Shown here: positions 5,160-48,747 of the stretch, one piece after another
Layout: each line of letters opens with the position of its first letter
Numbering within the stretch: position 1 is the stretch's first letter
Origin: a phage
Length of the DNA: 64,000 nt
Sequence record: OZ346187.1
Strand: one strand, 5' to 3'
Made by a program: the position numbers and the translations under genes
Notes under the pieces: model-generated
Databases searched by the model: none
What the model was told of the DNA's origin: nothing
What the model saw: only the letters and a program-made list of their open reading frames with translations

Positions 5160-5170
5160 GAGGAGGTGTT

Positions 5171-5485: not shown

Positions 5486-5492
5486 ACAAAGG

Positions 5493-5527: not shown

Positions 5528-5574
5528 CCCTAAAGTGTTAAAATAGTCCTAAGGAATTTTCTCAGGAGAACGTG

Positions 5575-18525: not shown

Positions 18526-18791
18526 TATTCTTCCTCCATAGTTTCACCAAATACTTCGATACGAGCATCGAGCTCGGTTGCTTTCAGCTCCCCAACAAAA
18601 TATTTTAGTTCTTTCTCGTCCAGATCGTAAGCCCACACACAAGAAGAACATGCAGATTTCACAATCAGCAGCGTAGATACACGACCTGACTCTGTGATCA
18701 TGCTCACAATGGTTCCCACAGGGAACGTGTTGATAGCTTTTTTAACTGGGCGTTCAGCTTTAATTACTACCTCTGTTGCCATAAATAACAT
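18525..18791 (-). CDS. small acidic protein (88 aa)
   Basis: ORF in minus block. Confidence 0.4.
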   Translation of the reverse strand: MLFMATEVVIKAERPVKKAINTFPVGTIVSMITESGRVSTLLIVKSACSSCVWAYDLDEKELKYFVGELKATELDARIEVFGETMEEE

Positions 18792-18797
18792 CCTCTC

Positions 18798-20258: not shown

Positions 20259-20267
20259 TAAAACTCC

Positions 20268-20290
20268 AGAAGGGGCCAATGGCCCCTGTC
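20268..20290 (-). terminator. GC hairpin between co-directional genes
   Basis: ggggcc-aat-ggcccc palindrome between stop of 20292-21341 and the 18798-20258 start region. Confidence 0.35.
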
Positions 20291-20291
20291 A

Positions 20292-21341: not shown

Positions 21342-21351
21342 CAAAAACGTG

Positions 21352-21380
21352 TTGACTTTACTCTAACTCTACAATATAGT
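21352..21380 (+). promoter_or_regulatory. sigma70-like promoter (TTGACT-17-TATAGT)
   Basis: -35 at 21352-21357, 17-nt spacer, -10 at 21375-21380, in the divergent intergenic region upstream of 21421. Confidence 0.45.
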
Positions 21381-21420
21381 GCACCCATTCGAAAGAAAAC
21401 TAACATAGGAGCACTTACTT

Positions 21421-22320
21421 ATGGCAAATCTTAACAGTTTTAGTACGCGGTGGAAACAGGACATAACAACCAATCTTTCAGCTGGGGACATCCTTTCTGC
21501 AATTTACGAGGCTTTAGATGATAAAGCTACTTCAAAAGCGGTTTGTACCAACCCGCTAATTCCTGTAGTGATGAAGGTTATTGAGCGTAGATTGGTATCT
21601 GGGTCTGATAAGTGGACATATTTAGATAATGAAGGACACACCTATTCCAATGGGTACGTCGATATAAAAGTAGAATACGCGGTATCATACCGCCGGAGCG
21701 GTTCTGTAACTTTCAACTTCTCTGGAGGTTTTCGATCTCTGGCTACCTCACCTTTTGTTTCCTCAGAGGAGAAGTATGAGCTGCCATTTCTTTGGATGAT
21801 GGCTAACGCGACAGGAAAAACCCCCGTTAGCATCCGAGTAAAATACAACTACAACGGATCTAGTAAGATCTATGCCGAAAGTGTCTCAGCAAGTTTTTAT
21901 TTTGTGATGGGAGATGGAATCCTCAAACATATAAAGATGTGCGATATGCATGATGTTATAAATGAAGTGACTGATAAGAATGTTCTAGTGAAAGACCTCA
22001 ACAATTTTTATACACCCGGAGACTATTACGTCAGCCGTCCACTGTGCATCTTTAATGCCGCACACCCTCTAGGTGAGTATTTGATCGCCAATAGCGATAT
22101 TGCCAATAACCGATTCGAGGTAGCAAGAGTTCAGAATGAGGTATTGACATCTTGCAAGAGTGGTGATAAGTTTACCGAAGAAGAGATGAGTGTTTTAGAA
22201 ATGATGGGATATAAGTGTAGCCTTTGGGTAGATGAGGTGTTTAATGATTGCATCTATGGACAGGATATTTACCCATTAAAGAAGTATACTGATACAAGTT
22301 TAATTTATGCGAGGGTTTGA
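21421..22320 (+). CDS. hypothetical early protein (299 aa)
   Basis: AGGAG RBS; first gene after the divergent promoter. Confidence 0.55.
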   Translation: MANLNSFSTRWKQDITTNLSAGDILSAIYEALDDKATSKAVCTNPLIPVVMKVIERRLVSGSDKWTYLDNEGHTYSNGYVDIKVEYAVSYRRSGSVTFNFSGGFRSLATSPFVSSEEKYELPFLWMMANATGKTPVSIRVKYNYNGSSKIYAESVSASFYFVMGDGILKHIKMCDMHDVINEVTDKNVLVKDLNNFYTPGDYYVSRPLCIFNAAHPLGEYLIANSDIANNRFEVARVQNEVLTSCKSGDKFTEEEMSVLEMMGYKCSLWVDEVFNDCIYGQDIYPLKKYTDTSLIYARV

Positions 22321-22325
22321 CTACG

Positions 22326-22595
22326 ATGAAGTCGTGTGGTAATGTATATTACGTCGGTGAACATGTTCAGGCAGACAGTGTGTGGAAATCTATTAAGTCC
22401 ACCACTGACGATGCCTTTCTGAGTGGACTATGTTTCCCCAATCCGGGAGACATCCTCCCTCATCCTGGAGATTTTGTTGTCAACAAGATGGACGGTTATA
22501 CCGTGTGCCTGATGGTTGAAAAAATCTTTTTAGACACTAGACACAATCACCGTCTTGTGTTAAAATTTCAAGAATGTAAAATGACAATTGCCTAA
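22326..22595 (+). CDS. hypothetical protein (89 aa)
   Basis: In-frame ATG at 22326 (track TTG 22317). Confidence 0.4.
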   Translation: MKSCGNVYYVGEHVQADSVWKSIKSTTDDAFLSGLCFPNPGDILPHPGDFVVNKMDGYTVCLMVEKIFLDTRHNHRLVLKFQECKMTIA

Positions 22596-22608
22596 GGAGA
22601 CCTTACCG

Positions 22609-22965
22609 ATGTCTAAAGTTACTTATCGTGCAGCTATTTACTGCAATGAACACCCAATTAACAATGATGGTCACTGCCTTTTTAAAGAAAATCAGTTGGG
22701 ATGTATTGTCCTCCCTGATGAAGGGAAAGGTTATCTGATTGCATTGACAGGGTTTGAACCTGAAGCTCTGGAAGCCAATCTGGACTACCTGGTAGAAGAG
22801 GGTGCTGCAGACCTGGTTGCCAATGGCTTCTCCATAAGCCTTGACGAAGTGGAGCGCTTCATGGGCAATTACCGTGTAGTGCGTGAGTTTACTATCGAGG
22901 TGGAAACTCCAGAGTGGGGTAGCCATGAAACTAATGCCGAAGAAAAAGAAGAGGAGGTAGAATAA
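22609..22965 (+). CDS. hypothetical acidic protein (118 aa)
   Basis: ATG at 22609 preceded by AAGGAGA (track TTG 22588). Confidence 0.45.
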   Translation: MSKVTYRAAIYCNEHPINNDGHCLFKENQLGCIVLPDEGKGYLIALTGFEPEALEANLDYLVEEGAADLVANGFSISLDEVERFMGNYRVVREFTIEVETPEWGSHETNAEEKEEEVE

Positions 22966-23222
22966 TGAAAGTGCAGATCTTGACTAATGCCGAGAAGATG
23001 TTTATTGAAGATACACCTTTTGAAGCTGGTGAGCTCCAGTTCATTTATTTTGTTGACTTAGATAAGGTGTTCCCTGCACTGAATCTTGGTCTGGATGAAG
23101 TTCCTCATAAGGTTTTGTGCCAAGTTGTTCGTGCATTAGCGGCAGATGGGGAGTTCCACACCCTTGAAGATGTCCAGACCTACGGGTATCTTGAACTACA
23201 ACGAGAAGAAGAGGTGGACTGA
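22965..23222 (+). CDS. hypothetical protein (85 aa)
   Basis: GAGGAGG RBS, ATG overlapping upstream stop. Confidence 0.45.
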   Translation: MKVQILTNAEKMFIEDTPFEAGELQFIYFVDLDKVFPALNLGLDEVPHKVLCQVVRALAADGEFHTLEDVQTYGYLELQREEEVD

Positions 23223-23224
23223 TA

Positions 23225-23605
23225 ATGGCCCGGTGGAAGACAACAGTTGACCTTCATGATCAGTGGTTAGGACGCATCACTGAAGACGGGAAGCTAGTGG
23301 AGTGGGACAATAAGCATGTTAGCGAGTTGGCAAGTATTGTGGCTGGCAAGTTACGCTCCAAGTTCCCTGAACAACTGGATCCTGATAGTTCAAAGTTCGA
23401 TCCTGAGTTGGAGGATGTTGTATACTACTTCGACACCGTTGATGACTACGACGCGTGGTTTGCAGCACGGGAGCTTTACCCACAAGGCTCTGCTATGCGT
23501 CAGATGGAAGAAGATTATCCTCCGTGTGAGCAATTCAATAGTGCAATGACTTGCCTCTATGATTGGGCAGATAAGAACCTTGTCTGGATTCGGACTGCAT
23601 TTTAG
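23225..23605 (+). CDS. hypothetical protein (126 aa)
   Basis: ORF with RBS. Confidence 0.45.
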   Translation: MARWKTTVDLHDQWLGRITEDGKLVEWDNKHVSELASIVAGKLRSKFPEQLDPDSSKFDPELEDVVYYFDTVDDYDAWFAARELYPQGSAMRQMEEDYPPCEQFNSAMTCLYDWADKNLVWIRTAF

Positions 23606-23649
23606 TGGGCAGGAATGGCGGCAAGGATGCTGCTTAAGGAGTAGTAGAG

Positions 23650-23919
23650 ATGTTATACCAGCAATATGAACTTCGTGCAGAAAAAGAGTTAAATTTTGAC
23701 AAAGATATTCACAGATATTATTATGGGAAAGTTAGAGGGCAAGCAAGAAAGTGTACTCCAACACTCTTTTATGCCAGCAGACGACTAGCGCCAGAAGAGG
23801 CAACAGCAGAAAGGGTTGCGTACAACTGGAGAGTCACGTATGATATTGACAGATCCGATGTGATATCTGTTTTGGAAAACTTTGAAAACACTTACACACA
23901 AGTAGAGGACTTTTACTAA
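23650..23919 (+). CDS. hypothetical protein (89 aa)
   Basis: AAGGAG RBS. Confidence 0.45.
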   Translation: MLYQQYELRAEKELNFDKDIHRYYYGKVRGQARKCTPTLFYASRRLAPEEATAERVAYNWRVTYDIDRSDVISVLENFENTYTQVEDFY

Positions 23920-25103
23920 TGTCAAGAAACGTATTCGAAAGTGGTCAAATCACTGTCCGTGAGTTGCCAGCTATTATTCAGTTTGCCCAACGTCATAGCC
24001 GATCTGTCCTAGTTTTGGGACCAATGGGTGTGGGTAAAAGCCAGGTGATGAAGCAGATCGCTGATAATATGTTCGGTGAGCGAGATGACAACCTTGTTGA
24101 CGTGCGACTGTCAGATAAAGATCCTGCCGACTTATCTGGGCTACCTATCCCTGTAGAGGCGGATGGAACTACACGTACAGTGTTTGCAATTCCAGAATTT
24201 TGGCCTGCGGATCCTGACTGGAGCGGAATTATCTTTCTGGATGAGCTCACTCATGCAGATAACTACCTGCAAAAGGTTGCAATGCAAATTATGCTTGACC
24301 ACAAGTGCGGTACCTATGCATTCCCTAAGGGTTCTGTTTTTGTGGCTGCTGGTAACCGTTCTACAGATGGTGCGGTTCTTTCGGCGCTCGAAGCCCCTCT
24401 GGCTAACCGTTTTATCATTGTAGAGGTTACAAGCAATGCAGAGGTGTTTATTGAGGACTACGCATTCCTTAATGGGGTGCACTCCTCTGTAATTGGATAT
24501 CTGAAAAGAGTTCCATCAGCTATCGATAATTATGAGGCCATGGCTGAGATTAATTGTCCATCTTTTGCCACACCGCGATCTTGGGTTGCTGCATCTGATA
24601 TCTTGCACGATTTTGACAGCGGTATTATTTCTGACGCTATGGCCCGTGTTCTTCTGCAAGGTGCTATTGGTCACACTGCAGCGGTAGAGATCTGGACATA
24701 CCACACCAAGAAACGCAATTTACCTGAAATCGGTCGGATTATGGCAGGTGGTTGCAAAGAATACGTAGGTCCTAAGCAGCCAGACATTTTGTGGATTCTT
24801 GGATCTGAAGGTTGTATCGCTATTCGTAATATGATGGAAAATGCAAGTATCTCAGACGAAGATCTTGTCAGCTGCGTGGCAAACTTCCTCGATTTCCTTT
24901 GGGAAAACTTCAAGGACGAGAACCGAGATTTTGTATTCTCAGTCTTTATGGCGATGATGAAACCTAATGCCTTAGGAAATGCCTTGCTTATCGGCAAAGG
25001 GCGTGACAAGATTGTTGCTCAGCTGATCAAAGCATACCCAAACCTGATGAAGATTGTAAAAGAGTTTGGTGAAGAGTTTAGCGCCATTTTGGCTAAAGCT
25101 TAA
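23919..25103 (+). CDS. MoxR/CobS-like AAA+ ATPase (394 aa)
   Basis: Walker A VLVLGPMGVGKSQ, Walker B IIFLDELTHAD, sensor-like FVAAGN and ALANRF, the AAA_5/MoxR arrangement. Confidence 0.75.
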   Translation: MSRNVFESGQITVRELPAIIQFAQRHSRSVLVLGPMGVGKSQVMKQIADNMFGERDDNLVDVRLSDKDPADLSGLPIPVEADGTTRTVFAIPEFWPADPDWSGIIFLDELTHADNYLQKVAMQIMLDHKCGTYAFPKGSVFVAAGNRSTDGAVLSALEAPLANRFIIVEVTSNAEVFIEDYAFLNGVHSSVIGYLKRVPSAIDNYEAMAEINCPSFATPRSWVAASDILHDFDSGIISDAMARVLLQGAIGHTAAVEIWTYHTKKRNLPEIGRIMAGGCKEYVGPKQPDILWILGSEGCIAIRNMMENASISDEDLVSCVANFLDFLWENFKDENRDFVFSVFMAMMKPNALGNALLIGKGRDKIVAQLIKAYPNLMKIVKEFGEEFSAILAKA

Positions 25104-25112
25104 GGGGGTTGT

Positions 25113-25493
25113 ATGGCTAAAGTAGGTAAGCGGGGAAACTACCTGGTGGTATTGACCGAGGAGCCGGAGAAGGAGTACGAATGCAGCTCCACTTGCGTGA
25201 TCGATATCCGAGAAAAAGATGTAGATGAAATCTGGTTTAAAATATTAGACGCTTGCGACAGCAGTGATTATTTCTTCATCTATGTCAACGATAAGGCTGG
25301 ATTCTTCCATGACGACGGAGAGTTGCCGTATGAAATCTATGAACTTGTAGAGGCTTGCCATCGTGGAGATGCGGAGTTGTTTGGCTTACGGCTGAAAAGC
25401 GGTAAATTCTTCTATCAAGATGAGTGCATGAATCTTCATAACTTTGTAGAGGGAACTTGCAACGATGGAGAGATTTTGGCACACTACGATTAA
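25113..25493 (+). CDS. hypothetical protein (126 aa)
   Basis: ORF with RBS. Confidence 0.45.
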   Translation: MAKVGKRGNYLVVLTEEPEKEYECSSTCVIDIREKDVDEIWFKILDACDSSDYFFIYVNDKAGFFHDDGELPYEIYELVEACHRGDAELFGLRLKSGKFFYQDECMNLHNFVEGTCNDGEILAHYD

Positions 25494-25505
25494 TTTCTAA
25501 TACCA

Positions 25506-25530
25506 CCCCGCTTCGGCGGGGATTTTCTAT
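25506..25530 (+). terminator. rho-independent terminator-like hairpin
   Basis: ccccgc-ttcg-gcgggg followed by attttctatt. Confidence 0.55.
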
Positions 25531-25541
25531 TTGGAGTTATT

Positions 25542-26042
25542 GTGAAAATTAAGATCTTTGCTATTATTTTGAGCGCATTTTTATCGCTGCCTGTTGTTGC
25601 AGCACCAAAACAAAAAGTATATCATACTTGCAAGCCCTCAGATACTAAGGAAAACATTTTGGCATGTAATATCTACAGGGAGGCTAGAGGGGATGGCACG
25701 ATGGGTATGCTGGCATCAGGGTTTGCCACACTAAACAGGAAATCTCACCCCAAATACCCAGACACTATAAGAAAGATTGTCTACCAACCTAACCAGTTTT
25801 CGTGGACAAACCACGGCAAAACTTTTAAGGTGACAGAAAAAGATTCATGGGATCACGCTAAAAGTCTTGCAAAGATGCTTCTAAAGGTCTATAATAACAA
25901 CCATGTTGCATACATGGCTATGGACATAACAGGTGGAGCAACACACTACCATACAACCAAAGTACGACCGAAATGGGCAAAAAAGATGCAGAGGACAGCT
26001 CAATTCGGGAGTCATATCTACTACAAGGAGCGCAATAAATGA
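25542..26042 (+). CDS. secreted SleB-type cell-wall hydrolase (166 aa)
   Basis: GTG start after GGAG; N-terminal signal peptide; NIYREARGDG, VYQPNQFSW and ATHYHT motifs match the Hydrolase_2/SleB catalytic domain. Confidence 0.75.
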   Translation: MKIKIFAIILSAFLSLPVVAAPKQKVYHTCKPSDTKENILACNIYREARGDGTMGMLASGFATLNRKSHPKYPDTIRKIVYQPNQFSWTNHGKTFKVTEKDSWDHAKSLAKMLLKVYNNNHVAYMAMDITGGATHYHTTKVRPKWAKKMQRTAQFGSHIYYKERNK

Positions 26043-28021
26043 TTGTAAACAGTAATGAAACTAAAGCAGTACTAACCGGAAATATGGAGGTCACCAGGGG
26101 CTCAATTTCTCTGAACAAAGAGACTTTTGGGCTAATCATTAAAGGGATTTACGAAGATAAGGTGCTGGCAAGCTGCCGTGAACCAATCTTCAATGCTGTG
26201 GACTCCCATGTTGAGTCTGGACGGGGTGATGTACCGATCATCATTCACTCTCCTACAGACCTTGAACCATACTTCTTTGTGCAGGACGTTGGATTGGGCA
26301 TGTCGGAAGAGATGGTCCGCAACACTTTCATGAACCTCGGGGAGTCAACCAAGCGCAACAGCAACGCTCTGGTAGGTAATAAAGGTGTAGGTTCAAAGGC
26401 CCCGTTCAGCATGGTGGACACTTTCGATGTGATCAGTGTGCACAACGGTGTTGAAAGCACATATCTGTTGTTCTTGGATCAGGGTATCCCAAACGTTACC
26501 AAGATCCGCGAGCGAAAGACTGAAGAGCACAACGGGGTAAAAGTTCAGTTCCATGTTAAGAAAGAGCATGTTCTGAAATATCGCACTGCTATTGCGTCAT
26601 GCCTACGCTATGCAAAGTTTCCGTTTACCGTTACCGACCCTATGACCAGTAAGATGCTGGAAGGTGACAAGGTTGAGGCGCAGTATCGCTACGAGAAAGA
26701 TGGTTGGAAAATGACTATCCTGAAAGGTTATACCAGCTCTGATGAGAGCCGTGTGGTGATGGGACACCAACCTTACCGCTCTAAGTTTCTGGAAACATTG
26801 ACAGACTACCCTGCAATCTGTGTAGAGATCCCTATCGGGGATTGCAATATTAACCCTGGGCGCGAATGGACCATAGAGGGGCACGACGATGGTGGATTCC
26901 AGGATCGCCTGGAGGCCTTTGTCAAAGAAGGTATACGTCTTCGTGGGGCAGAAGTTGTTGCGGAATTGGAGACAGCAAAAACATCCTCAGAAGCACGTGA
27001 GATGATGAAGAACAGTGGAGTGTTCGGACACATCTTCGGCAAAAACTTTATGTGGAACCGTTGGGAAGAAACAGGGCTTGGCGACTTAGGCGATTGTGAA
27101 ATTTTCGCTGGCGGCTTAAATAAAGGCCGCATAGGCTATGCTCGTTACGGAAAGTCGGAGTTCTTACGAGGTGTATACCTTGTATTTAACGACGGAGACG
27201 GCAAATATAACCGAAATAAGTGTAACTACTTAAGCGAGATCACCGGACGCAACGTTTTCTATTGCCGTAACACGGATCTGATGGAAGAGTTTAAAGAAGC
27301 GGCACACCACCCGTTCTTTGCAGATACGGTCAAATTGTTATCAGAGCTCCCTCGCCGTCCTGTAAAGAAAGGTGAAACAAAAACTCACTATGAGCCAGGG
27401 TATTGGGTTAAAAAACTTGAGAAAGATGGTTACTTCCGTCGTGAGCGTATTACTAAGGCAGAGTTCAAGAAGATTAAGCACTGCATTCCTTATGAGGGTG
27501 ATATCCAACGTGGAAGTTGTTGGCTGGGACAGCTAAGTAACATCTACCAGCAAAATTATGACCGTGTGCGTGCGGCACTCCAGATTCCTGAAGGGGAAGA
27601 TCTGTACCTGGTATCAGAATCTCGTCTGCTTTGGACTGATCCTGATTGCCAGTATGTTACAGAGAAAAATGTGGAACATTTGTTGAAAGAGGACGCCTGG
27701 AAATTCTTACTGACTCGCGCAGCAAATGAAACTTCATATGACAGCCTGTATAGACAATTAGGGAAAATTATCCCCATGCAAGATTTTGGAAATTATCGGC
27801 CACATTTCCACAAGTGGGAAGGTAACACCGCGTGGAAGCACAGTGAGCTAAATCATCGTGCCAAAATCTTAATCGCCAACCGAGTCAAGTGCGGGAAGGC
27901 CTATATTGCAAGATTGGAAAAGAAATATCCACTTTTGAAGCATGTGGGCTTGAAATATTGGGACACTCCTGCTATGATTGAATACCGTGAACTGATCGAC
28001 GCAAAGAATAACACCAAATAA
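26039..28021 (+). CDS. GHKL (Bergerat-fold) ATPase-like protein (660 aa)
   Basis: N-box-like EPIFNAVD, G1-like QDVGLGMS and G2-like GNKGVGSKA in the first 120 residues; no Toprim EGDSA motif, so not obviously a topoisomerase. Confidence 0.5.
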   Translation: MIVNSNETKAVLTGNMEVTRGSISLNKETFGLIIKGIYEDKVLASCREPIFNAVDSHVESGRGDVPIIIHSPTDLEPYFFVQDVGLGMSEEMVRNTFMNLGESTKRNSNALVGNKGVGSKAPFSMVDTFDVISVHNGVESTYLLFLDQGIPNVTKIRERKTEEHNGVKVQFHVKKEHVLKYRTAIASCLRYAKFPFTVTDPMTSKMLEGDKVEAQYRYEKDGWKMTILKGYTSSDESRVVMGHQPYRSKFLETLTDYPAICVEIPIGDCNINPGREWTIEGHDDGGFQDRLEAFVKEGIRLRGAEVVAELETAKTSSEAREMMKNSGVFGHIFGKNFMWNRWEETGLGDLGDCEIFAGGLNKGRIGYARYGKSEFLRGVYLVFNDGDGKYNRNKCNYLSEITGRNVFYCRNTDLMEEFKEAAHHPFFADTVKLLSELPRRPVKKGETKTHYEPGYWVKKLEKDGYFRRERITKAEFKKIKHCIPYEGDIQRGSCWLGQLSNIYQQNYDRVRAALQIPEGEDLYLVSESRLLWTDPDCQYVTEKNVEHLLKEDAWKFLLTRAANETSYDSLYRQLGKIIPMQDFGNYRPHFHKWEGNTAWKHSELNHRAKILIANRVKCGKAYIARLEKKYPLLKHVGLKYWDTPAMIEYRELIDAKNNTK

Positions 28022-28031
28022 GGAGACAGCT

Positions 28032-29237
28032 ATGATTTTCATCTACGAACATTTCAAAACTCGTAAAGAAGCACGCGACCGCCGTGCAGAACTTGAGAAG
28101 AAGGGTTTCACATGTGCTATTGAGAAAGGTACTACAACATGGACACTGGCAGTAGGTGCCCCAGAGCTGTTTGATCCTGACCGAGACAGTGTCTGCTATA
28201 CCCGTGAGGATTTTGAAACCCGCGAAGAGGCCCGTTTATTCCGCTACGGACTGGAAGACAACGGTAAGTACGCCATGATCTTAGATTCAGGTGAAGGTTC
28301 CGTTAAACGTTGGGGCGTGGTATACCCACTGTGTGTTGTTCACGGTGTGGGGGTCACTGGGGTAGCAATCAAGTCAGAAGAACCTTTAGTAGAAGTCAAA
28401 GATCCGGTGCTGGAAGTGGTGAGCAGTGTGTCTCAGCAACAGTCTCGAAGCATCGAGCCTTTGGTAGTTATTTGCGGGGAACTCCTCCAAATCACCTGCA
28501 ACGAAGGCATTTTTGAAATTCGCCGCAGCGAAAGTGAGGAAGTTTACCAGAAAGTCTTCGACCATATTTCTGTTCAGGAATATGATGAGGCAATTGGTGA
28601 AATCCTTGTCTGGCTGGAACGCAAGAATGAGTTCACCACACTTGCAGACAACCTGATCATGAAAGATGGTAAGCTCTACTACTACGGTGTAGAGATGCGA
28701 TCCACCATTGCAAAGAAAATTGAGGAAGATTATGTAGATGGAACACTGGACGACCGATATGTTAAATTCCTTGTCCGTCTGCTACGCAACCCGTCTGCAA
28801 AATCTGTGAACATGCTCTACGATTTCATGCAGGCTAATGACATCCAGGTTGCAGAAGATGGTCGAATCATTTGCTATAAGGGGGTTCAGTTTAACGGGAG
28901 CAGGTGGGTGGATTGGCACAGCGGTAAAGTTCCACAATACCAGGGTGCTTTTGTGTCCATGCCTCGTAACTTTGTAGAAGATGATCCGGAAGCTGCGTGT
29001 TCTTATGGCCTGCACTGCGCCAGCAAAGAGTATGCAGCGGGCTATGGCACTGTAATGATGGTTATGGTTGACCCTGCGGATGTGGTTAGTGTGCCATACC
29101 AACACAACAGTGCTAAGTGCCGTGCATGCCGCTACGAAATCGTAGCAGCACCGGAATCACGCAAAGATGGCGATCCGATTGAATACGTAGTTGACCGTGA
29201 TGGTAACATCATCGACATTATCTACGAGGAGGCGTAA
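28032..29237 (+). CDS. hypothetical protein with two N-terminal about 40-aa repeats (401 aa)
   Basis: AAGGAGA RBS; tandem N-terminal repeats; no catalytic motif recognised. Confidence 0.5.
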   Translation: MIFIYEHFKTRKEARDRRAELEKKGFTCAIEKGTTTWTLAVGAPELFDPDRDSVCYTREDFETREEARLFRYGLEDNGKYAMILDSGEGSVKRWGVVYPLCVVHGVGVTGVAIKSEEPLVEVKDPVLEVVSSVSQQQSRSIEPLVVICGELLQITCNEGIFEIRRSESEEVYQKVFDHISVQEYDEAIGEILVWLERKNEFTTLADNLIMKDGKLYYYGVEMRSTIAKKIEEDYVDGTLDDRYVKFLVRLLRNPSAKSVNMLYDFMQANDIQVAEDGRIICYKGVQFNGSRWVDWHSGKVPQYQGAFVSMPRNFVEDDPEAACSYGLHCASKEYAAGYGTVMMVMVDPADVVSVPYQHNSAKCRACRYEIVAAPESRKDGDPIEYVVDRDGNIIDIIYEEA

Positions 29238-30607
29238 TGGAAAAAGGGCAGTATGACGTAGGCACAGATGCTGCCCTCATTGCAATCATGAGTGGTGAGA
29301 ATGTCTTCGTTTCAGGACCTGCAGGTTGTGGGAAGACGTATCTCATCAACATGATCCAGTCAATGTATGGAGACTCTTGCATAACGGTTGCCCCGACAGG
29401 GGTAGCCGCTTTAAACGTTAATGGAGCAACAGCACACCGAACATTCGATCTTGCAGCAGGTGTGAGCATGGAGTCGGACTGGACCGCAATAAGGGCAAAA
29501 ACAGCAAAGCCTTTGAAAAGCAAGGCATTTACCATCCTAATTATCGATGAAATCTCTATGATCCGTGCTGATAAGTTTATAGAGATGGATAGGAAACTCC
29601 GCTTCCTTCGAAAAAATGACAAACCTTTCGGAGGCATACAGGTCATATTGTTTGGCGATTTTTACCAGGCACCTCCTGTTGTCTCTTCTATGGAGAAGGA
29701 AGCCTACTTCAACTTCTACCATACGGACCTGTGTTGCTACACCGAATCTTGGAAAGAGCTTGACCTCCACAACATAGCCCTAATAGATCAGTTCCGACAG
29801 GAGTCTATTCGATTTGCCACAATGCTCAACTGTGTTCGTGAGGGTCGTCGCATAAAAGAGGTTGTAGCAGAACTTAATGCTCGCTGTTACAAAGGTGGTG
29901 TACCAACAGATGCTCTCACAATTTGCGCCACCAACAAACAAGCAGAGGAAGTAAACAGAAGGTTCTATGATGCCATCAACGCCCCAGAGAAGGTATACAC
30001 TGGTGAAATGAAGGGTAAGTTTCCCTCCACCCTGCCAGTTGAGCAGGAGATGAAGTTGAAAATTGGCATGAAAGTTATGATAACCGCCAACGATGTTGAC
30101 CCGACGCACAAAGTACCTTATTATGTTAACGGAACACGTGCCACAATTGTTAAATTTAAGAACAAGGCGGTGGTGGTAGAGCTTGAAGATGGAACACAGG
30201 TTGACATAGAGCAGAGGTTGTGGGAGAATAACGAGTATAAGCCCTCTCAGAGATACAACATTGCAGAAAGGAAGATGGAGAAGTTTATAGAGAGGGTAGT
30301 GATTGGGTCATACAAGCAACTTCCTCTGAAATCTGGGTACGCCGTAACATCTCATAAAAGTCAAGGACTTACGCTAGATTGTTACAACCTAGACCTTGGA
30401 AAGAACGGAGCTTTCTCTCCTGGGATGACGTATGTCGCTTTGAGTAGAGTTAAGACAATACAAGGAATAAACTTGTTGCGTCCCCTAAGAGAAGTTGACA
30501 TTATTGTTGACCCGCGAGTAGTAGAGTTTTACAATACAACATTCCCTGACTTAGACAAAATTGTCAGGAAAGATTTTGAAACCAGAGCAGAAGAGGGGGA
30601 CGTATGA
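29237..30607 (+). CDS. Pif1/RecD-family SF1 DNA helicase (456 aa)
   Basis: Motifs I GPAGCGKT, Ia VAPTGVAALN, II IIDEISMI, III LFGDFYQAPPV, V VTSHKSQGLT, VI YVALSRVK. Confidence 0.85.
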   Translation: MEKGQYDVGTDAALIAIMSGENVFVSGPAGCGKTYLINMIQSMYGDSCITVAPTGVAALNVNGATAHRTFDLAAGVSMESDWTAIRAKTAKPLKSKAFTILIIDEISMIRADKFIEMDRKLRFLRKNDKPFGGIQVILFGDFYQAPPVVSSMEKEAYFNFYHTDLCCYTESWKELDLHNIALIDQFRQESIRFATMLNCVREGRRIKEVVAELNARCYKGGVPTDALTICATNKQAEEVNRRFYDAINAPEKVYTGEMKGKFPSTLPVEQEMKLKIGMKVMITANDVDPTHKVPYYVNGTRATIVKFKNKAVVVELEDGTQVDIEQRLWENNEYKPSQRYNIAERKMEKFIERVVIGSYKQLPLKSGYAVTSHKSQGLTLDCYNLDLGKNGAFSPGMTYVALSRVKTIQGINLLRPLREVDIIVDPRVVEFYNTTFPDLDKIVRKDFETRAEEGDV

Positions 30608-30945
30608 GTTTGTGGAGAAATATCGTTAACTACGTGTGTGGCAATCCGACTCCTGAAGAGAAGGATGTTGTGATTCACGATTTTACTAAAAGATCTCGTG
30701 AAAAAGATTTACTGCTAACAAAGGTGACCGATAAAGATCCTGCAGTAGGGGACTGGGCAGGTTTTGCGTTTACATCGGACAAATACACCTTTAACAAAGG
30801 TGACTACCTTGTTGTGGATTTTAACGAAGACATTGAGGGTGCTGAACCTTACTATCAAACCCTTATTGTTGCAGGGTGTGTTAATCTCTCTGCAGGTATG
30901 CACAGTTTGATTCTTTTTGAGCTTGACTCTGAAGACCTTGAGTAG
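30604..30945 (+). CDS. hypothetical protein (113 aa)
   Basis: ATG overlapping helicase stop. Confidence 0.45.
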   Translation: MSLWRNIVNYVCGNPTPEEKDVVIHDFTKRSREKDLLLTKVTDKDPAVGDWAGFAFTSDKYTFNKGDYLVVDFNEDIEGAEPYYQTLIVAGCVNLSAGMHSLILFELDSEDLE

Positions 30946-30962
30946 TAAGATGTGAGTATAAA

Positions 30963-30980
30963 GGGGAGGCACTCCTCCCC
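30963..30980 (+). other. GC-rich hairpin (ggggagg-cact-cctcccc) without U-tract
   Basis: Perfect 7-bp stem between 30945 and 31007; possible processing or attenuation element. Confidence 0.3.
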
Positions 30981-31006
30981 ACAAAAACTAAGGAGAGCAC
31001 CAAACG

Positions 31007-32332
31007 ATGAGTAAAACCAAATTAGAACTAACCTGGATAGGTAAAAACGAGCGCAAAAAGTTAGAGCCGCACATTTTGTTAGAAGATTCTAGCAAGTCTT
31101 ACCACAGCCAGAAAGTGACCGAAAACGATATTTTTGATAATAAACTGATTTTTGGAGATAACTTATTAGCATTGAAGGCGCTAGAGCAAGAGTATGCAGG
31201 CAAAGTGAAGTGTGTTTACATAGACCCACCATTCAATACTGGAAGGGCTTTTGAGCACTACGATGATAGCCTTGAGCATTCCATTTGGCTGGGCTTAATG
31301 AGGGATAGGTTAGAAATAATTCGTAATCTTCTAAGTGATGATGGGGTAATATTCGTTCACTTAGATGATTGCGAAATGGCGTATTTAAAAGTTTTGATGG
31401 ACGAGATTTTTGGTCGTGCAAATCAGTTAAATACCATATCGATGACCACAAATTCCCCTTCGGGATTTAAGGCAACAGGAGCCACAGTTTTCTCCACAGC
31501 AAACTTTTTGCTTGTATATGCAAAAGATCGCACCCAGAAACCGCTTAACAAAATCTATATACCTAAAGGGTATGATACAGGATATAACAAATACCTATTA
31601 AACCCGGATGACCATTATAAAAATTGGACGTGGTGCGGTATTGCCGATGCGTTTGCAAAGGCCAATGGCTATAAAGATGCAAAAGAGGCCAAGAAAAAAC
31701 TGCCTGATACATTCGATGATGAATTAGCACAATTCGCAATTGATAATGCAGAACGTGTATTTCAATCTGTTGCAATCGGCGGTGGTGCTAAAATAAAGAG
31801 AAAAGAAACTATCGAGAAGTCAAAGAAAGATAGGGATAAGGTTTATGTACATCCAAATGAAGATGTTGAAGGATTTTATATCGTAAATGGTAGGCAAATG
31901 GTCTTTTACTCCAACAGGCTTTTGGAAATTGACGGTGATATGCAACCTGCGGAACTAATAACTGATGTTTGGACAGACATTAGTTGGAATGGAATAGCAA
32001 ATGAAGGCGGCGTTAGTTTCAAAAATGGGAAAAAACCAGAAGCGCTTTTGAAGCGAATTTTCGAAATGTGTACGCGAGAAGGCGATTTGGTATTGGATTC
32101 ATTCGGTGGTTCGGGAACTACTGCTGCTGTAGCTCACAAGATGAAAAGACGTTGGATCTCAATCGAGCTAGGTGATCATTGTCATACCCATATTATTCCG
32201 CGCTTGGAAAAAGTGATCGATGGTGAAGATCAAGGTGGTATTTCTAAGTCTGTAAACTGGGAAGGTGGTGGTGGCTTCCGCTATTACAAACTTACCCCGA
32301 CCTTAATTGCGAAAGATAAGTCTGACCAATAA
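31007..32332 (+). CDS. beta-class DNA N6-adenine/N4-cytosine methyltransferase (441 aa)
   Basis: Catalytic VYIDPPFNTG (motif IV) near the N-terminus and SAM-binding DSFGGSGTTAAVA (motif I) near the C-terminus, the IV-before-I order of beta-class amino-MTases. Confidence 0.8.
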   Translation: MSKTKLELTWIGKNERKKLEPHILLEDSSKSYHSQKVTENDIFDNKLIFGDNLLALKALEQEYAGKVKCVYIDPPFNTGRAFEHYDDSLEHSIWLGLMRDRLEIIRNLLSDDGVIFVHLDDCEMAYLKVLMDEIFGRANQLNTISMTTNSPSGFKATGATVFSTANFLLVYAKDRTQKPLNKIYIPKGYDTGYNKYLLNPDDHYKNWTWCGIADAFAKANGYKDAKEAKKKLPDTFDDELAQFAIDNAERVFQSVAIGGGAKIKRKETIEKSKKDRDKVYVHPNEDVEGFYIVNGRQMVFYSNRLLEIDGDMQPAELITDVWTDISWNGIANEGGVSFKNGKKPEALLKRIFEMCTREGDLVLDSFGGSGTTAAVAHKMKRRWISIELGDHCHTHIIPRLEKVIDGEDQGGISKSVNWEGGGGFRYYKLTPTLIAKDKSDQ

Positions 32333-32345
32333 AGAGTACAATCAA

Positions 32346-32651
32346 ATGATGAAACGTTATAAACCATACACTTTTGAAATCGATTTCGAACTTGACGATA
32401 TGTTCACTGTGGAAGCTCAGGCAGTTGTCCAGTTGCCAGACCCAGAGTGCCGTGATTCTGATGTTGACTATTACGGATTTAGACAAATTACCGATGTGCA
32501 TGTTTACCACAACGGTGAAGAGGTGGACTTCCACCAACTGCCAAACGATTTGCGACACTCAATTTACAAACGTGCAGCCCGTGAACTAGAGTCCTATCTG
32601 GATGCAGCGACGACAGCAGCTGCATTTGCTGAAGAAGTGGGAGGTTTCTGA
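32346..32651 (+). CDS. hypothetical protein (101 aa)
   Basis: First in-frame ATG at 32346 (track TTG 32307 overlaps MTase). Confidence 0.45.
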   Translation: MMKRYKPYTFEIDFELDDMFTVEAQAVVQLPDPECRDSDVDYYGFRQITDVHVYHNGEEVDFHQLPNDLRHSIYKRAARELESYLDAATTAAAFAEEVGGF

Positions 32652-33046
32652 TGATTACAGGTGTGAAGGTTATCCAATACCACTTAACCAAATTGGAAGA
32701 TGCTGAAAAAGAGCTTGCAGAAGTTCTGAATAGTGGATATACTTTGCTATCATGCGCCTGCTCAGACACCTACGCTGTGTGGACACTTATCCGGAAGGAG
32801 GAGCCTGCAGGGATCTTGGTGCCAAACCCTAAGATTATCAGTGAAGTGGATGACTGCTCTCAGGACGGCCTGTCAGAAGGCTGGGAAGTATGGGAAGGTG
32901 GTGAAAACCCTGCACCAGGTAAGTGGGTAAAATACAAACTACGTAGCGGTGCACAGCACGCTGGATACTCTGATAACCTGGACTGGAGTCATTCTTCACC
33001 GGAATCATTGGTAAGTGCATATGATATCGTTGCTTTTCAGGAATAA
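32651..33046 (+). CDS. hypothetical protein (131 aa)
   Basis: ATG overlapping upstream stop, GGAGG RBS. Confidence 0.45.
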   Translation: MITGVKVIQYHLTKLEDAEKELAEVLNSGYTLLSCACSDTYAVWTLIRKEEPAGILVPNPKIISEVDDCSQDGLSEGWEVWEGGENPAPGKWVKYKLRSGAQHAGYSDNLDWSHSSPESLVSAYDIVAFQE

Positions 33047-33058
33047 GGAGAGAGTGTT

Positions 33059-33541
33059 ATGTCAGATTTTATGTGGAAAGTAGGTTATGCCTCTCCTGAA
33101 ATGTGCGAGGCTTGCTTTGTAAAAATAGGCCGCGAGGATATTGACAAAGTGATCTTTAAGTTTCGTGATGTATCTGTGATCGGCAACCGAGTGCTTAAGC
33201 ACTTAAAGAATCTGAAGCTCACCAAAAAGAAGTTCTTCGGACTTTTCGAAGAGAAAGTTGATGCTTGGACCCATTGCATTCAGGAAGCTAAATCTCACTA
33301 CAGTGCTATCGTTACCCCAGAACGGGTAGCCAAGATGGAAGGATTCATCAACAGCACAGAGTTTGAGTGCCTAAAGGCTGCCCTTAATAGTTATCCAAAG
33401 TGCCTCAAACACCTTGACAAGTATGTAGAAAAGGATGGGGAAATGTACCTAACCCTGGACGCATATTATGAGATGCAAGAAATTTTAAATTTAGATTTGA
33501 CATTGGTATCCACCGAGTATACAATAGGTATCCGGGTTTAA
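33059..33541 (+). CDS. hypothetical protein (160 aa)
   Basis: AAGGAGAG RBS. Confidence 0.45.
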   Translation: MSDFMWKVGYASPEMCEACFVKIGREDIDKVIFKFRDVSVIGNRVLKHLKNLKLTKKKFFGLFEEKVDAWTHCIQEAKSHYSAIVTPERVAKMEGFINSTEFECLKAALNSYPKCLKHLDKYVEKDGEMYLTLDAYYEMQEILNLDLTLVSTEYTIGIRV

Positions 33542-33547
33542 CACTAG

Positions 33548-33573
33548 GCCCTGCCCGAAAGGGTGGGGCTTTT
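33548..33573 (+). terminator. rho-independent terminator, GAAA-tetraloop hairpin
   Basis: ccctgccc-gaaa-gggtgggg then cttttt; the same 22-nt core recurs at 44926-44947. Confidence 0.6.
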
Positions 33574-33592
33574 TGCATTAGGAGACAGCAAA

Positions 33593-34357
33593 TTGAAATT
33601 CATCTACAAAGAACACTACCACAAAGGTGTTGTGTGGAGTCTATTTGACGGGTCTGGTGGTGCAGTTATTGACTGGGCAAAAGCTGGGTACCTGTGCCTG
33701 TGCTTTAATGCAGAAGGTGCTGACCACGGCAGTTATGCAGAGGTGATAACCGATCATCCTAACATTCACTATGTGGATTATTGGATTGACCCATGGTTCC
33801 CTCAGGAAACTTTTTGCATGTATCCAGCTCCAGACTTTATTCTTGCATTTCCTCCGTGCACGCATTTAGCGGTATCAGGTGCTGCACATTTTAAGAAAAA
33901 GCTGGCTAAGGATCCTTTGATCCAAATTAATGCTGTAAAGGATGCTCGGGTTGCGGAAGAGTTGGGAGAGATTTACGATTGCCCGTGGCATGTAGAGAAT
34001 CCTGTAGGGGTTATGTCCACACTGTGGCGAAAACCTGATTACCGTTTTCATCCTTCGGATTATGGTGGGTATTTACCGGAGGATGATGTAAACCCCTGGT
34101 TTCCTGAATTTATAGCTCCACGTGATGCCTACCCAAAAATAACTTGCGGCTGGATAGGCAATGGATTTATAATCCCGGCCACAAAACCTGTCCCGCAAAT
34201 AGTTGACGCGGTTAGCGGGTATTCCATGCAACACGCCAAGCTGGGTGGAAAGAGTGCAAGAACGAAGATGATCCGAAGCCTCACGCCACGTGGCTGGGCA
34301 AAAGCCGTATTCTTAGCAAACGAGCCTGTAGTAAGGAGCAGAATTAATGGGAAGTAA
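33593..34357 (+). CDS. DNA cytosine-5 methyltransferase-like protein (254 aa)
   Basis: Probable TTG start at 33593 after AGGAGA; motif I-like LFDGSGG, catalytic Pro-Cys in AFPPCTHLAVSG, motif VI-like HVENPVG; short, target-recognition region unclear. Confidence 0.45.
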   Translation: MKFIYKEHYHKGVVWSLFDGSGGAVIDWAKAGYLCLCFNAEGADHGSYAEVITDHPNIHYVDYWIDPWFPQETFCMYPAPDFILAFPPCTHLAVSGAAHFKKKLAKDPLIQINAVKDARVAEELGEIYDCPWHVENPVGVMSTLWRKPDYRFHPSDYGGYLPEDDVNPWFPEFIAPRDAYPKITCGWIGNGFIIPATKPVPQIVDAVSGYSMQHAKLGGKSARTKMIRSLTPRGWAKAVFLANEPVVRSRINGK

Positions 34358-36425
34358 ATTTATGGCATCTGCATACAACCGTTTCGGTGAGCCAAACCCG
34401 AAAGCAATTAAGTATAAAAGTGGGGGAAGTGTGAAACGAGACTATCGTGATGAAAAAGAGGTTGAAACTGTAGAGACTGTTTTAGAAAATACTAAAATCG
34501 TCCCTGTCCCACAACAAAATATCGGTCTGATGGCTGCACAATATTTTGGTGTGCGATCAGCATTGTCCCAAGAAGACGGTGTGACAGTCACTGCAACATA
34601 TTTCCCATATTACGACCGATACGGAAATCTGTCCGGTTTCAAAAAGCGTGACTGGACTATTCCTAAAGAACAAAGGGGCCACTTCTCCGTTGTTGGCATA
34701 GTAAAGGCCAACTCCCAGATGTTTGGTCAAAAGCTGTGTGCATCTTCCAACAACCGTAAGCAGATTAACGTTTGTGAGGGAGAAGGTGATGTTATTGCAG
34801 CATGGCAGGCTGCATATCAGATACAAGTAAAAGGGATTCTCACCAACGCTAAAGCCCCGGCAAAGGTGAAGCAGTGGGCTAAAGAGGTCCAGGACGGGAT
34901 CGACGCAGTTATCAACGGTGGTGATCTGGCAGGAAAACCCTGCCTGCCTTTTGTTGGAATTAACTGTGGATGTGCAAACGCAGTAGATACTTTTGCAAAC
35001 AATGAGAAGTTTATCCGTAGCTATGGAACAGTTGTGCTGGCAATGGATAACGATGCAGCTAACGAGGTAGAGAAGCAAAAACACGTCATTAAAGGTGTTG
35101 AGGCCACGCACAATATCGCAGCATTTTTGATGGCTGATAACGTTTACCACGTAGAATACCCTGGTGAAGTAAATGACCCTGACGGGGTAAAAGATATCCG
35201 TGACATGCTGAAGGCTAAAAAGCTGGAAGATATTGTCAACATGTTCCGGCACCCTGTTAAATATGTGCCTGATGCTGTGTCGGATTTAGAAGACTTCTCT
35301 ATCGAGTCTTTGCGGAAAAAGACTTCCAACGGGGTAGATATCAGCGCAGAGTTCCCAAAACTGCAAAAAATGCTAAAAGGCTTGCACAAAGGGACACTCG
35401 TAATGCTTACAGGGCCATCAGGGGGCGGTAAAACAACTGTAGCTAAAAAACTGGAACATTGTATTGCAAGATACCTAATGGACCCGACATGCCCGAAGGC
35501 TGATGACTATGAAGAGGATGATCGTCTATGTATGATCCATCTTGAGGAGGACCCAGAGGAAGCAATTAACTCCTTGTATGCAAACCAGTTAGGGTTTGAT
35601 GTTAAAGAGTTTGTTGAAGATCCTAGCCAGTTTTTAACTGATCAAGAACACGCAGAGATTCACCAATCATGGGCAAAAGCTGGAAAAATCAAAGTGTTCA
35701 AACATTTCGGATCTATTCCGGTGGACGAGTTGATTACCAAGCTTAAGCAAATGGTTTGCCTGTACCATTGCCGTTATATTGTGCTGGATCACCTATCCAT
35801 GGTAATTTCAGGGCTTAATGTTAAGGATGAGCGAAAAGAACTGGACATGGCTATGACTCAGCTGGCTGCGTTTTGTAAGCAGTTTAACGTGTTTATCTTG
35901 GTGATCGCTCACCTCAAACGTACAGAGATTGTGCCTCCTAAGGACAAGGATGGTAACCCGTTACCTTTCTGGTATCCTGTGCGAAAAGAGAATTTGCGAG
36001 GATCGGCGGGGCTTGAACAGTTGAGTTGGGTAGTCATAGGTGTCGAGGCCGAAGAAATGGTGGATCGTTCTCGTGGACGTGTCCGTCTGGTAGGTCTTAA
36101 AAACCGTCCAGCAAAAACTCTAGGTATTGCTGACACTTTGGTTATGGACCCGCACACAGGTAAGTTCCATGATGCCAGTAATTGGTACTGGGACAAAGAA
36201 ATGCAAATGTTTACAGACGGAGAAGGTGGGGAGGTTGTTTGGAGACCTCAGGCTATGTTTGAGGATCAGGAGCATGCAGTTGTAGAAACACCTATGGGCA
36301 AGGTTGTGGCTGATAAGGTTGTAACTCCTACTGTTAAGCCTGTTGACACGCAGGAAGACCTCCAGTACGATGATCCATCCTCTGACCCGGTCCCTGGTTT
36401 TGAGGATGATGAAACGCCTTTTTAA
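34347..36425 (+). CDS. DNA primase-helicase (Toprim + P-loop helicase) (692 aa)
   Basis: Toprim-like CEGEGD and VLAMDNDAANE; Walker A LTGPSGGGKTT, Walker B IVLDHLS; acidic C-terminus ...FEDDETPF. Confidence 0.75.
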   Translation: MGSKFMASAYNRFGEPNPKAIKYKSGGSVKRDYRDEKEVETVETVLENTKIVPVPQQNIGLMAAQYFGVRSALSQEDGVTVTATYFPYYDRYGNLSGFKKRDWTIPKEQRGHFSVVGIVKANSQMFGQKLCASSNNRKQINVCEGEGDVIAAWQAAYQIQVKGILTNAKAPAKVKQWAKEVQDGIDAVINGGDLAGKPCLPFVGINCGCANAVDTFANNEKFIRSYGTVVLAMDNDAANEVEKQKHVIKGVEATHNIAAFLMADNVYHVEYPGEVNDPDGVKDIRDMLKAKKLEDIVNMFRHPVKYVPDAVSDLEDFSIESLRKKTSNGVDISAEFPKLQKMLKGLHKGTLVMLTGPSGGGKTTVAKKLEHCIARYLMDPTCPKADDYEEDDRLCMIHLEEDPEEAINSLYANQLGFDVKEFVEDPSQFLTDQEHAEIHQSWAKAGKIKVFKHFGSIPVDELITKLKQMVCLYHCRYIVLDHLSMVISGLNVKDERKELDMAMTQLAAFCKQFNVFILVIAHLKRTEIVPPKDKDGNPLPFWYPVRKENLRGSAGLEQLSWVVIGVEAEEMVDRSRGRVRLVGLKNRPAKTLGIADTLVMDPHTGKFHDASNWYWDKEMQMFTDGEGGEVVWRPQAMFEDQEHAVVETPMGKVVADKVVTPTVKPVDTQEDLQYDDPSSDPVPGFEDDETPF

Positions 36426-36487
36426 TGTTTAACAAAGAGTGGGAGGGGTAGTACAACCGCCTCCCCTTTAAGGAGAACGTTTATACT

Positions 36488-48447: not shown

Positions 48448-48476
48448 TACTTGAAAATCCCTGGCATATCAAGTGT

Positions 48477-48512
48477 AAGGAGGATTTCTAAAATGGATTT
48501 CCTCCTTTTGAT
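48477..48512 (+). terminator. terminator-like hairpin at end of plus block
   Basis: aaggagga ... tcctcctt stem with about 15-nt loop followed by ttgatattt. Confidence 0.35.
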
Positions 48513-48747
48513 ATTTCACCGGGCCAGATATTTTAAAATTCTTAGAAAATCAGGTCTTTGAAATGAAAAACAGATCGAGTACCGAAAGAGGATGTACAAA
48601 TTTTCTGATAATAATGGACTTATTGTTATAAAAGGTCAGAGGTAAGCTGGGAAAGTTCTGGTAGAAGGGTGAGAGTATGTGCGGAAAAATCTGGAATAGT
48701 GACTTAAAGTACGGTGCGAACGATAAGGAATTGAGCAGCACATCTTA

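Follow-up and report, generated by a model that had tools for sequence, protein, structure and literature searches.

A predicted rIIA-rIIB counter-defence pair and an adjacent, separable helicase gene in Vequintavirus DNA

Introduction

Within a 64,000-nt stretch of phage DNA (sequence record OZ346187.1; the whole stretch is called the window here), three consecutive open reading frames (ORFs) on the + strand encode a 660-amino-acid (aa) protein with GHKL-type ATPase motifs (26039-28021), a 401-aa protein (28032-29237) and a 456-aa helicase (29237-30607). Do these genes form one functional unit? A first, sequence-only reading had proposed that they do, and described the ATPase, the repeat-containing 401-aa protein and the helicase as a translationally coupled DNA-remodelling or anti-defence system. 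The three ORFs exist exactly at these positions and match the coding sequences (CDS) of Escherichia phage naswa. Our analysis assigns the first two genes to the rIIA and rIIB families; the pair is very probably a two-protein conditional counter-defence module of Vequintavirus directed against the lambda abortive-infection system RexAB, and the third gene a separate accessory helicase. The category of anti-defence was therefore chosen rightly, and two of the proteins do work together, but as the known pair rIIA/rIIB.

At the DNA level, Escherichia phages naswa and magaca share 99.9% identity with the 4.6-kb region, and for about a hundred further records identity is at least 95%. As the records checked (naswa, EdH4 and MaxBurger) are Vequintavirus, rV5-like coliphages, the window is assigned by sequence identity to this genus. 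The CDS coordinates of naswa map one-to-one onto the three ORFs and carry the labels 'RIIA protector from prophage-induced early lysis', 'rIIB protector' and 'putative helicase'. The rII locus is thus already known: more than 100 near-identical genomes carry the annotation, and functional tests exist for the same species. rIIA and rIIB count among the longest-known genes of phages.

Results

The first two genes are assigned to the rIIA and rIIB families

The PHROG family phrog_612 'RIIA' covers residues 1-656 of the 660-aa protein (E = 2.2e-124). Pairwise comparison by BLASTP aligned its residues 1-198 with T4 rIIA at 28% identity (E = 3e-21), while a profile of 22 homologues found T4 rIIA at E = 6e-66 and the rIIA proteins of six other lineages at E <= 2.6e-49. 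Profile hidden Markov models (HMMs), built from homologues collected in the present analysis, recovered both rIIA and rIIB in 7/7 other lineages, with E values from 1e-147 to 5.4e-20. By these matches the 660-aa protein is classed as a member of the rIIA family.

The Bergerat motifs pointed out in the sequence-only reading are indeed present, EPIFNAVD at residue 48, DVGLGMS at residue 83 and GNKGVGSKA at residue 113, in agreement with a Pfam HATPase_c_3 match on residues 50-147 (E = 1.8e-8, above the cut-off). The ATP-binding fold spans about residues 26-190 (26114..26608, +). Nine of its residues are invariant in the 22 homologues and make up the N-box (E48, N52, D55), the G1 box (D83-G85-G87) and the G2 box (G113-G116-G118). 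A second domain at about residues 195-285 (26621..26893, +; boundaries approximate) carries the invariant residues Y246, R275 and E276 and lies in the position of the transducer or middle domain of Hsp90, MutL and topoisomerase II ATPase modules. The AlphaFold2 model of the protein has a mean predicted local distance difference test (pLDDT) score of 82.9. The architecture is accordingly an N-terminal GHKL ATPase and a transducer-like domain, followed by a C-terminal region that varies by lineage. The rIIA family, also labelled the phage GHKL 'membrane integrity protector', has been described as an N-terminal GHKL/Bergerat ATPase domain with a variable C-terminal region (PMC7824862), and the window protein shows the same combination of intact nucleotide-binding motifs and variable C-terminus. 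Searching PDB sequences with rIIA gave nothing significant (TRAP1 appeared at E = 0.11), NCBIfam gave no match above threshold, and PADLOC gave hits only at E of about 0.005-0.008 and no match to a defence system.

The 401-aa protein is likewise assigned by sequence to the rIIB family. It matches phrog_609 'RIIB' (E = 2.2e-60), and residues 172-371 align with T4 rIIB at 36% identity (204 columns, E = 2e-38). The rIIB homologues listed all carry PF26926 according to precomputed annotation, and a Foldseek search of BFVD structures returned 30 significant matches, mostly named RIIB or 'protector from prophage-induced early lysis'. An alignment of six lineages showed ten invariant residues (C323, S324, G326, L327, H328, P348, D350, K362, R364 and Y368), the first five of which form the motif C323-S324-x-G326-L327-H328 (CSxGLH) in a conserved core at about residues 144-375 (28461..29156, +). 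This core family comprises 7,647 cluster representatives at E <= 0.001, and rIIB was found in 2,778/50,697 phage records. NCBIfam and PADLOC gave no match above threshold with rIIB, PADLOC no hit at all, and the PDB sequence search nothing significant. The weak Pfam hits DUF7003, SACS, influenza CM1, NosL and AntA were discarded as noise; they occurred in 1-7 of about 20 homologues, all below cut-offs.

Upstream of the core, rIIB contains a lineage-specific N-terminal tandem repeat and a disordered linker. The two repeats at residues 3-42 and 55-100 (28038..28331, +) had been noticed from the sequence alone, and a shuffling test bears them out: residues 6-25 against 58-78 score 44, while shuffled sequences score 19.8 +/- 3.8 and 0/1000 reach 44. 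Both copies are modelled as beta-alpha-beta-beta units with the motif F-x-[ST]-R-x-[ED]-A-R ... R-W-x-V, and R11, A14, R15 and W37 of the first and R64, E66, A67, R68, R93 and W94 of the second are nearly invariant in 20 rIIB homologues. The repeat pair is kept in rIIB proteins of the Vequintavirinae type, while T4 rIIB has no counterpart. Weak resemblance of the repeats to SPOR domains (peptidoglycan-binding, RNP-like, two beta-alpha-beta-beta units) was also observed; as no signal-peptide-like N-terminus was seen in rIIB, a periplasmic role of the repeats looks unlikely.

rIIA and rIIB are kept as a gene pair across phages

The gene neighbourhood was surveyed in twelve annotated genomes, which were chosen by hand and do not form a statistical sample. 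rIIA lies directly upstream of rIIB on the same strand in the window and in all nine other lineages surveyed, among them T4, Seunavirus, Felixounavirus, Kuttervirus, two Schitoviridae, a Vibrio phage and a Caulobacter jumbo phage. Conservation of the neighbourhood, which the sequence-only reading had suggested examining, therefore holds for rIIA and rIIB, whereas adjacency of the helicase is confined to Vequintavirus and Seunavirus. The same reading had named clear homology to a topoisomerase or to an Hsp90 chaperone with conserved partners as the result that would speak against it. The homology that we found is to a third family, rIIA with its partner rIIB, which carries the same objection in spirit.

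The two families also occur as one polypeptide. Phage RB43 encodes a 1049-aa protein which is, by its name ('RIIA-RIIB membrane-associated') and length, a fusion; the two genes of the window lie 10 nt apart instead. The RB43 protein holds the rIIB core fold (Foldseek E = 4e-16), and its length and name fit the dual match of the phrog_609 profile, which aligns over positions 29-186 with the rIIA N-terminus and over 806-1045 with the rIIB core. No fusion of rII with a helicase was encountered.

Published phenotypes connect the pair to RexAB

In T4, insertions of transposons into rIIA and rIIB are depleted only in the presence of RexAB (10.1101/2025.11.20.689424). For phage EdH4, knock-down of RIIA or RIIB by CRISPRi-ART leaves plating unchanged in the absence of Rex (PMC11879866). 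The titre data of that study give a decrease from 5e10 to 5e7, about 1000-fold, on knock-down of either gene in the presence of lambda rexAB, and the rows examined without rexAB contain no titre drop (PMC11879866). EdH4 is a Vequintavirus murica, the same species as the closest relatives of the window, and its rIIA and rIIB are identical to the window proteins at 651/660 (99%) and 391/401 (98%) positions. An anti-Rex role of the window pair would thus follow by analogy from published work on phage proteins that are 98-99% identical. Across phages, plating without RexAB is unaffected by knock-down or disruption of rIIA or rIIB in T4, EdH4, MM02, SUSP1, N4 and Bas54 (PMC11879866, 10.1101/2025.11.20.689424). 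Further defence systems have been connected to these genes: expression of RIIB triggers a CARD/gasdermin defence system (PMC10312443), and rIIA/B of the Felixounavirus Bas63 are needed against QatABCD (PMC11482910). The rII pair probably acts also against other membrane-acting systems.

These phenotypes also bear on whether the pair might mainly serve lysis timing (lysis inhibition), together with the adjacent SleB-type cell-wall hydrolase and without any counter-defence. PHROG and RefSeq use the family name 'lysis inhibitor', and T4 rII mutants were first found as rapid-lysis plaque mutants. Moreover, the stop codon of the hydrolase gene (25542..26042, +; Pfam Hydrolase_2, E = 2.1e-19, annotated in naswa) overlaps the rIIA start, and Certrevirus has two small ORFs, one a proposed holin, between SleB and the helicase. 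However, a lysis-timing function does not explain that plating is unaffected without RexAB in the six phages named above and that a phenotype appeared only with RexAB or, for Bas63, with QatABCD. Nor do the rIIAB genes of other lineages lie beside a lysis enzyme, and the rapid lysis of T4 rII mutants itself depends on resident prophages. We consider this explanation very improbable; the hydrolase is not part of rII.

The hydrolase N-terminus has a hydrophobic, signal-like segment, MKIKIFAIILSAFLSLPVVAAP, which suggests from its sequence that the enzyme might be a secreted or signal-anchored endolysin.

The helicase is separable from rII

The description of the third gene as a canonical Pif1-family helicase proved accurate. 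The 456-aa protein matches PF05970 PIF1 with E = 1.5e-32 (113 bits against a cut-off of 25.9) and contains GPAGCGKT (Walker A) at residue 27, DEISM (Walker B) at residue 104 and GDFYQ (GDxxQ, motif III) at residue 140. As it also matches phrog_325 'Dda-like helicase' (E = 1e-111), it is annotated as a Pif1/Dda-like superfamily 1B (SF1B) DNA helicase; PADLOC gave only generic RecD-like hits. Core replication genes (methylases, primase-helicase, DNA polymerase) follow just downstream of the gene. Small Flavobacterium and Vibrio phages encode homologues of the helicase, and so does ICP1 (helA/helB).

Among the lineages surveyed, the helicase follows rIIB directly solely in Vequintavirus and Seunavirus. 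No helicase was found within 6 kb downstream of the rII pair in Felixounavirus, Kuttervirus, Vibrio 1.170.O and CcrPW, nor in the 3 kb downstream of rIIB in T4, where dda is located about 7 kb upstream of rIIA. In Vibrio phage 193E37-1, rIIB and the helicase are 38 kb apart. Two Schitoviridae have a RecD-like helicase 0.9-1.8 kb downstream of rIIB; it is 22% identical to the window helicase (E = 3e-6) and located just upstream of DNA polymerase.

The helicase also occurs without rII in Cronobacter phage CR3, a Certrevirus of the same subfamily, in which SleB, two small ORFs, the helicase and a primase-helicase are found in synteny. SleB and the helicase of CR3 are 46% and 41% identical to the window proteins, while in the complete genome of 149,273 bp neither tblastn (four queries) nor three profile HMMs (E <= 10) detected rIIA or rIIB. 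For the related phage CB7, the absence of the rII genes has been noted independently (PMC7344957). The preserved synteny without rII indicates that rIIA-rIIB is a cassette gained or lost between hydrolase and helicase. The two small CR3 ORFs (62 and 61 aa; CR3 4085-6359) occupy the slot of rIIA-rIIB (compare 25542-30607 of the window), and for CB7 a class II holin has been proposed downstream of SleB (PMC7344957). The boundary of this indel could serve to follow gain or loss of the rII cassette.

Genetic data are available for Bas54 (MaxBurger), whose layout is identical to that of the window and whose proteins are 96-99.7% identical: rIIA at 97.9%, rIIB at 96.3% and the helicase (bas54_0068) at 99.6%. 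All three genes are non-essential on E. coli K-12, where 66/73 TA sites of bas54_0068 were hit (10.1101/2025.11.20.689424). On the uropathogenic isolate CFE311, insertions in bas54_0068 are about 80-fold depleted (log2 fold change, log2FC, of -6.32; q 0; Extended Data Table 8), while rIIA (-0.01) and rIIB (-0.34) are neutral (10.1101/2025.11.20.689424). The main text of this preprint does not contain the word 'helicase', and the depletion on CFE311 is not discussed there (10.1101/2025.11.20.689424).

These observations decide against the module of ATPase and helicase in the sequence-only reading, according to which the GHKL ATPase, the 401-aa protein and the Pif1 helicase are one three-component DNA-remodelling or anti-defence machine with a shared DNA substrate. 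Its appeal lies in the overlapping or very short junctions, in the position of the helicase directly after rIIB in two genera and 0.9-1.8 kb downstream in the two Schitoviridae, where it is RecD/Dda-like, and in the proximity of rII to topoisomerase genes in T4 and Det7. Older T4 literature, too, linked the rII proteins to membrane-bound replication complexes. But CR3 keeps the syntenic helicase without rII genes, most rIIAB lineages have no helicase nearby, and the Schitoviridae enzyme is only distantly similar and sits by DNA polymerase. Selection on CFE311 depletes the helicase and neither of the rII genes, and tight junctions are the norm in this gene cluster, as detailed below. A joint machine is therefore largely refuted, and we leave it only a slim residual chance. 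Given the CR3 synteny without rII, the missing linkage in most lineages and the different conditional phenotype, the helicase is best read from sequence and context as a separate accessory replication gene without an rII partner.

Tight junctions are a property of the whole cluster

The three genes had been described as one coupled block, and their junctions are indeed short: rIIA and rIIB are separated by a 10-nt gap containing AGGAG (Shine-Dalgarno), and rIIB and the helicase overlap in TAATG. However, the same holds beyond the three genes. The stop codon of the hydrolase overlaps the rIIA start in ATGA, and so does the helicase stop with the start of a 113-aa ORF (30604..30945, +; phrog_11869, E = 2e-78), the last gene before a 61-nt gap. 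In the + strand cluster at 21421-36425, 14/18 junctions are tight, 7 as overlaps and 7 as gaps of at most 15 nt. As tight packing is the background state of the whole cluster, it does not mark a three-gene unit, and the close junctions reflect the general packing of an early/middle gene cluster.

Just upstream of the hydrolase gene lies a terminator-like hairpin, CCCCGCTTCGGCGGGG then ATTTTCTATTT (25506..25521, +), and a second hairpin was found at 30963-30980, past the 113-aa ORF. Gap sizes and the two hairpins weakly suggest a possible five-gene unit at 25542-30945. Scans of the window for terminators (17 found against 13.3 expected) and promoters (33 against 27.6 in shuffled sequence) did not exceed chance, and operon boundaries thus rest only on the gap sizes and the two hairpins. 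No tRNA genes were found in the window.

Two observations concern the records that match this region. While the rII-helicase segment is 99.9% identical to naswa, the surrounding 19.7 kb (18768-38500) is just 97.1% identical overall, which suggests mosaic exchange among Vequintavirus genomes. Furthermore, 16 GenBank records named 'Campylobacter phage' (host Campylobacter jejuni) match the Vequintavirus locus. Among them, MG065635, MG065682 and MG065644 are unannotated and show 98.8% DNA identity and 99.6-99.8% helicase protein identity to the window locus. The Campylobacter host label of those records looks doubtful.

Neighbouring genes and a palindrome

A MoxR-like AAA ATPase gene (23919-25103, +; phrog_1297, E = 5e-110) precedes the hydrolase gene by about 0.4 kb and rIIA by about 0.9 kb. 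Its product is 99.7% identical to bas54_0063, which was validated as required against DS-28, a predicted defence system of E. coli CFE311 (log2FC -7.23; 10.1101/2025.11.20.689424). The anti-defence role of MoxR and the requirement of the helicase on CFE311 suggest a small accessory island around rII. We tentatively raise the possibility, which we hold to be doubtful, that the helicase is a host-specific counter-defence or host-range factor independent of rII and that the genes from MoxR (23919) to the 113-aa ORF (30945) form an accessory 'conflict island'. If so, MoxR would be directed against DS-28, rIIA/rIIB against RexAB and the helicase against some CFE311 factor.

Far outside the rII locus, a near-perfect palindrome of about 395 bp was observed at 48757-49151, with arms at 48757-48921 and 48986-49151 around a 64-nt centre. 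The arms pair in three segments, with 100% complementarity over 67 nt, 96% over 23 nt and 99% over 73 nt. The palindrome lies in an ORF-poor stretch at about 48450-50200, where listed ORFs are all shorter than 85 aa, just upstream of a change of sign in GC skew (about 50000). In Bas54, an intergenic region of about 2 kb between oppositely transcribed clusters tolerates no transposon insertions (10.1101/2025.11.20.689424). The palindrome stretch may be the same locus, and is a candidate replication origin or regulatory element.

Discussion

The question of whether the three genes form one unit is answered by dividing them: rIIA and rIIB very probably act as the conditional module against RexAB, and the helicase stands apart. 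How the pair might work can be outlined. rIIA would be a GHKL ATPase of the kind found in Hsp90, MutL and topoisomerase II, and as all predicted ATP-binding and catalytic residues are conserved, it most likely cycles by ATP-driven N-terminal dimerisation, as other GHKL clamps do. rIIB would contribute the conserved core with CSxGLH and a lineage-specific N-terminal module that may adapt the pair to its target. The T4 rII proteins associate with the inner membrane. Together, rIIA and rIIB might prevent the RexA/RexB trigger or channel from bringing down the membrane potential. In the Vequintavirus lineage the rII cassette was probably inserted between the SleB hydrolase and the helicase, and it would be only by this insertion that the helicase adjoins rIIB. 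We base the ATP-driven clamp on the fold, on conservation of the catalytic residues and on the genetics.

Several points weigh against this interpretation. Published sources concur in calling the rII mechanism poorly understood, and ATP hydrolysis, binding of rIIA to rIIB, membrane association and contact with RexA/RexB are predictions here. Pairwise BLAST aligns neither the C-terminal two thirds of rIIA nor the rIIB N-terminus with T4, so that the details of the mechanism may vary from lineage to lineage. Knock-down by dCas13d at a ribosome-binding site could hit translationally coupled downstream genes, and the published rIIB phenotype alone formally leaves room for a contribution of the helicase. 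Concerning the helicase itself, the conditional data for Bas54 come from a preprint supplement in which the sheets 'Data S6 (CFE303)' and 'Data S7 (CFE311)' share command line and values, so that one is apparently a duplicate. Finally, the occurrence of a helicase of the same superfamily downstream of rIIB in the two Schitoviridae and directly after it in two Vequintavirinae genera means that some functional tie to DNA metabolism is possible.

That the 660-aa protein is instead a divergent topoisomerase II/VI ATPase subunit, an Hsp90-type chaperone or a MutL/MORC-type clamp is hardly conceivable, given 8-22% identity to all such families, an NCBIfam HSP90 score of 18 bits against a cut-off of 455, the lack of a Toprim motif or domain, of a topoisomerase Pfam hit and of a PADLOC match, and a full-length, highly significant rIIA match with the conserved partner rIIB adjacent. 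The sequence-only reading had itself observed, correctly, that the Toprim motif EGDSA is absent from this protein, which is no topoisomerase subunit. For the same absence and the lack of a Toprim or DNA_gyraseB Pfam hit, a type II topoisomerase ATPase subunit (GyrB/ParE/T4 gp39) was rejected, the likeness to such ATPase modules being at the level of fold only. The idea of a missing ATPase of a phage topoisomerase was dropped in view of the missing Toprim, the lack of a topoisomerase family match and the full-length rIIA membership. An Hsp90 chaperone was likewise set aside; the score stays below the HSP90 cut-off, and the structures resemble each other only over the N-terminal domain and part of the middle one.

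The locus carries little weight as a discovery; what is useful here either rules something out or clarifies it. Where a GHKL ATPase that lacks Toprim is followed by a gene with a conserved CSxGLH core, rIIA/rIIB is the reading to adopt. In dense phage gene clusters, stop codons that overlap start codons are no evidence of a functional module. Comparative and published genetic data allow the helicase to be told apart from rII.

Among known systems, the ATPase modules of Hsp90, MutL and type II topoisomerases share with rIIA the Bergerat fold, the transducer-like domain and the motifs ExxxNxxD, DxGxG and GxxGxG. rIIA lacks Toprim, the Hsp90 C-terminal dimerisation domain and the MutL endonuclease domain, and its partner is rIIB. 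The window helicase is 28.7% and 27.3% identical to ICP1 helB and helA, respectively, over more than 90% of its length. T4 Dda belongs to the same superfamily and has the same size, but pairwise identity is 27% over 172 residues (E = 5e-6), and the best Pfam model of the window protein is PIF1, not a Dda-specific model. The HIDEN-SEQ comparison data for T4 give Dda a log2FC of 0.08, with no depletion of insertions, as for bas54_0068 (10.1101/2025.11.20.689424).

The rII locus of T4, studied by Benzer, contains the same two families in the same order, rIIA then rIIB, on the same strand. Both rIIA proteins share the N-terminal GHKL domain with the same motifs, both rIIB cores share CSxGLH at 36% identity, and according to the published data rII of T4 and of EdH4 is non-essential unless RexAB is present. 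The differences are in length and periphery: rIIA has 660 aa in the window and 725 aa in T4, and past residue 200 the two are aligned only by profiles, while rIIB has 401 aa and 312 aa, respectively, and begins in the window with two beta-alpha-beta-beta repeats and a disordered linker where T4 rIIB has a different N-terminus. The neighbours differ as well, as T4 has denB and ndd downstream of rIIB and dda on the far side of rIIA. The rII proteins of the window thus depart from T4 in lineage-specific parts only, namely the C-terminus of rIIA and the N-terminal repeats of rIIB. The closest systems with experimental data are EdH4 (CRISPRi-ART) and Bas54/MaxBurger (HIDEN-SEQ), which have the same gene lengths and spacing as the window and differ from it by a handful of substitutions, none of which hints at a functional difference.

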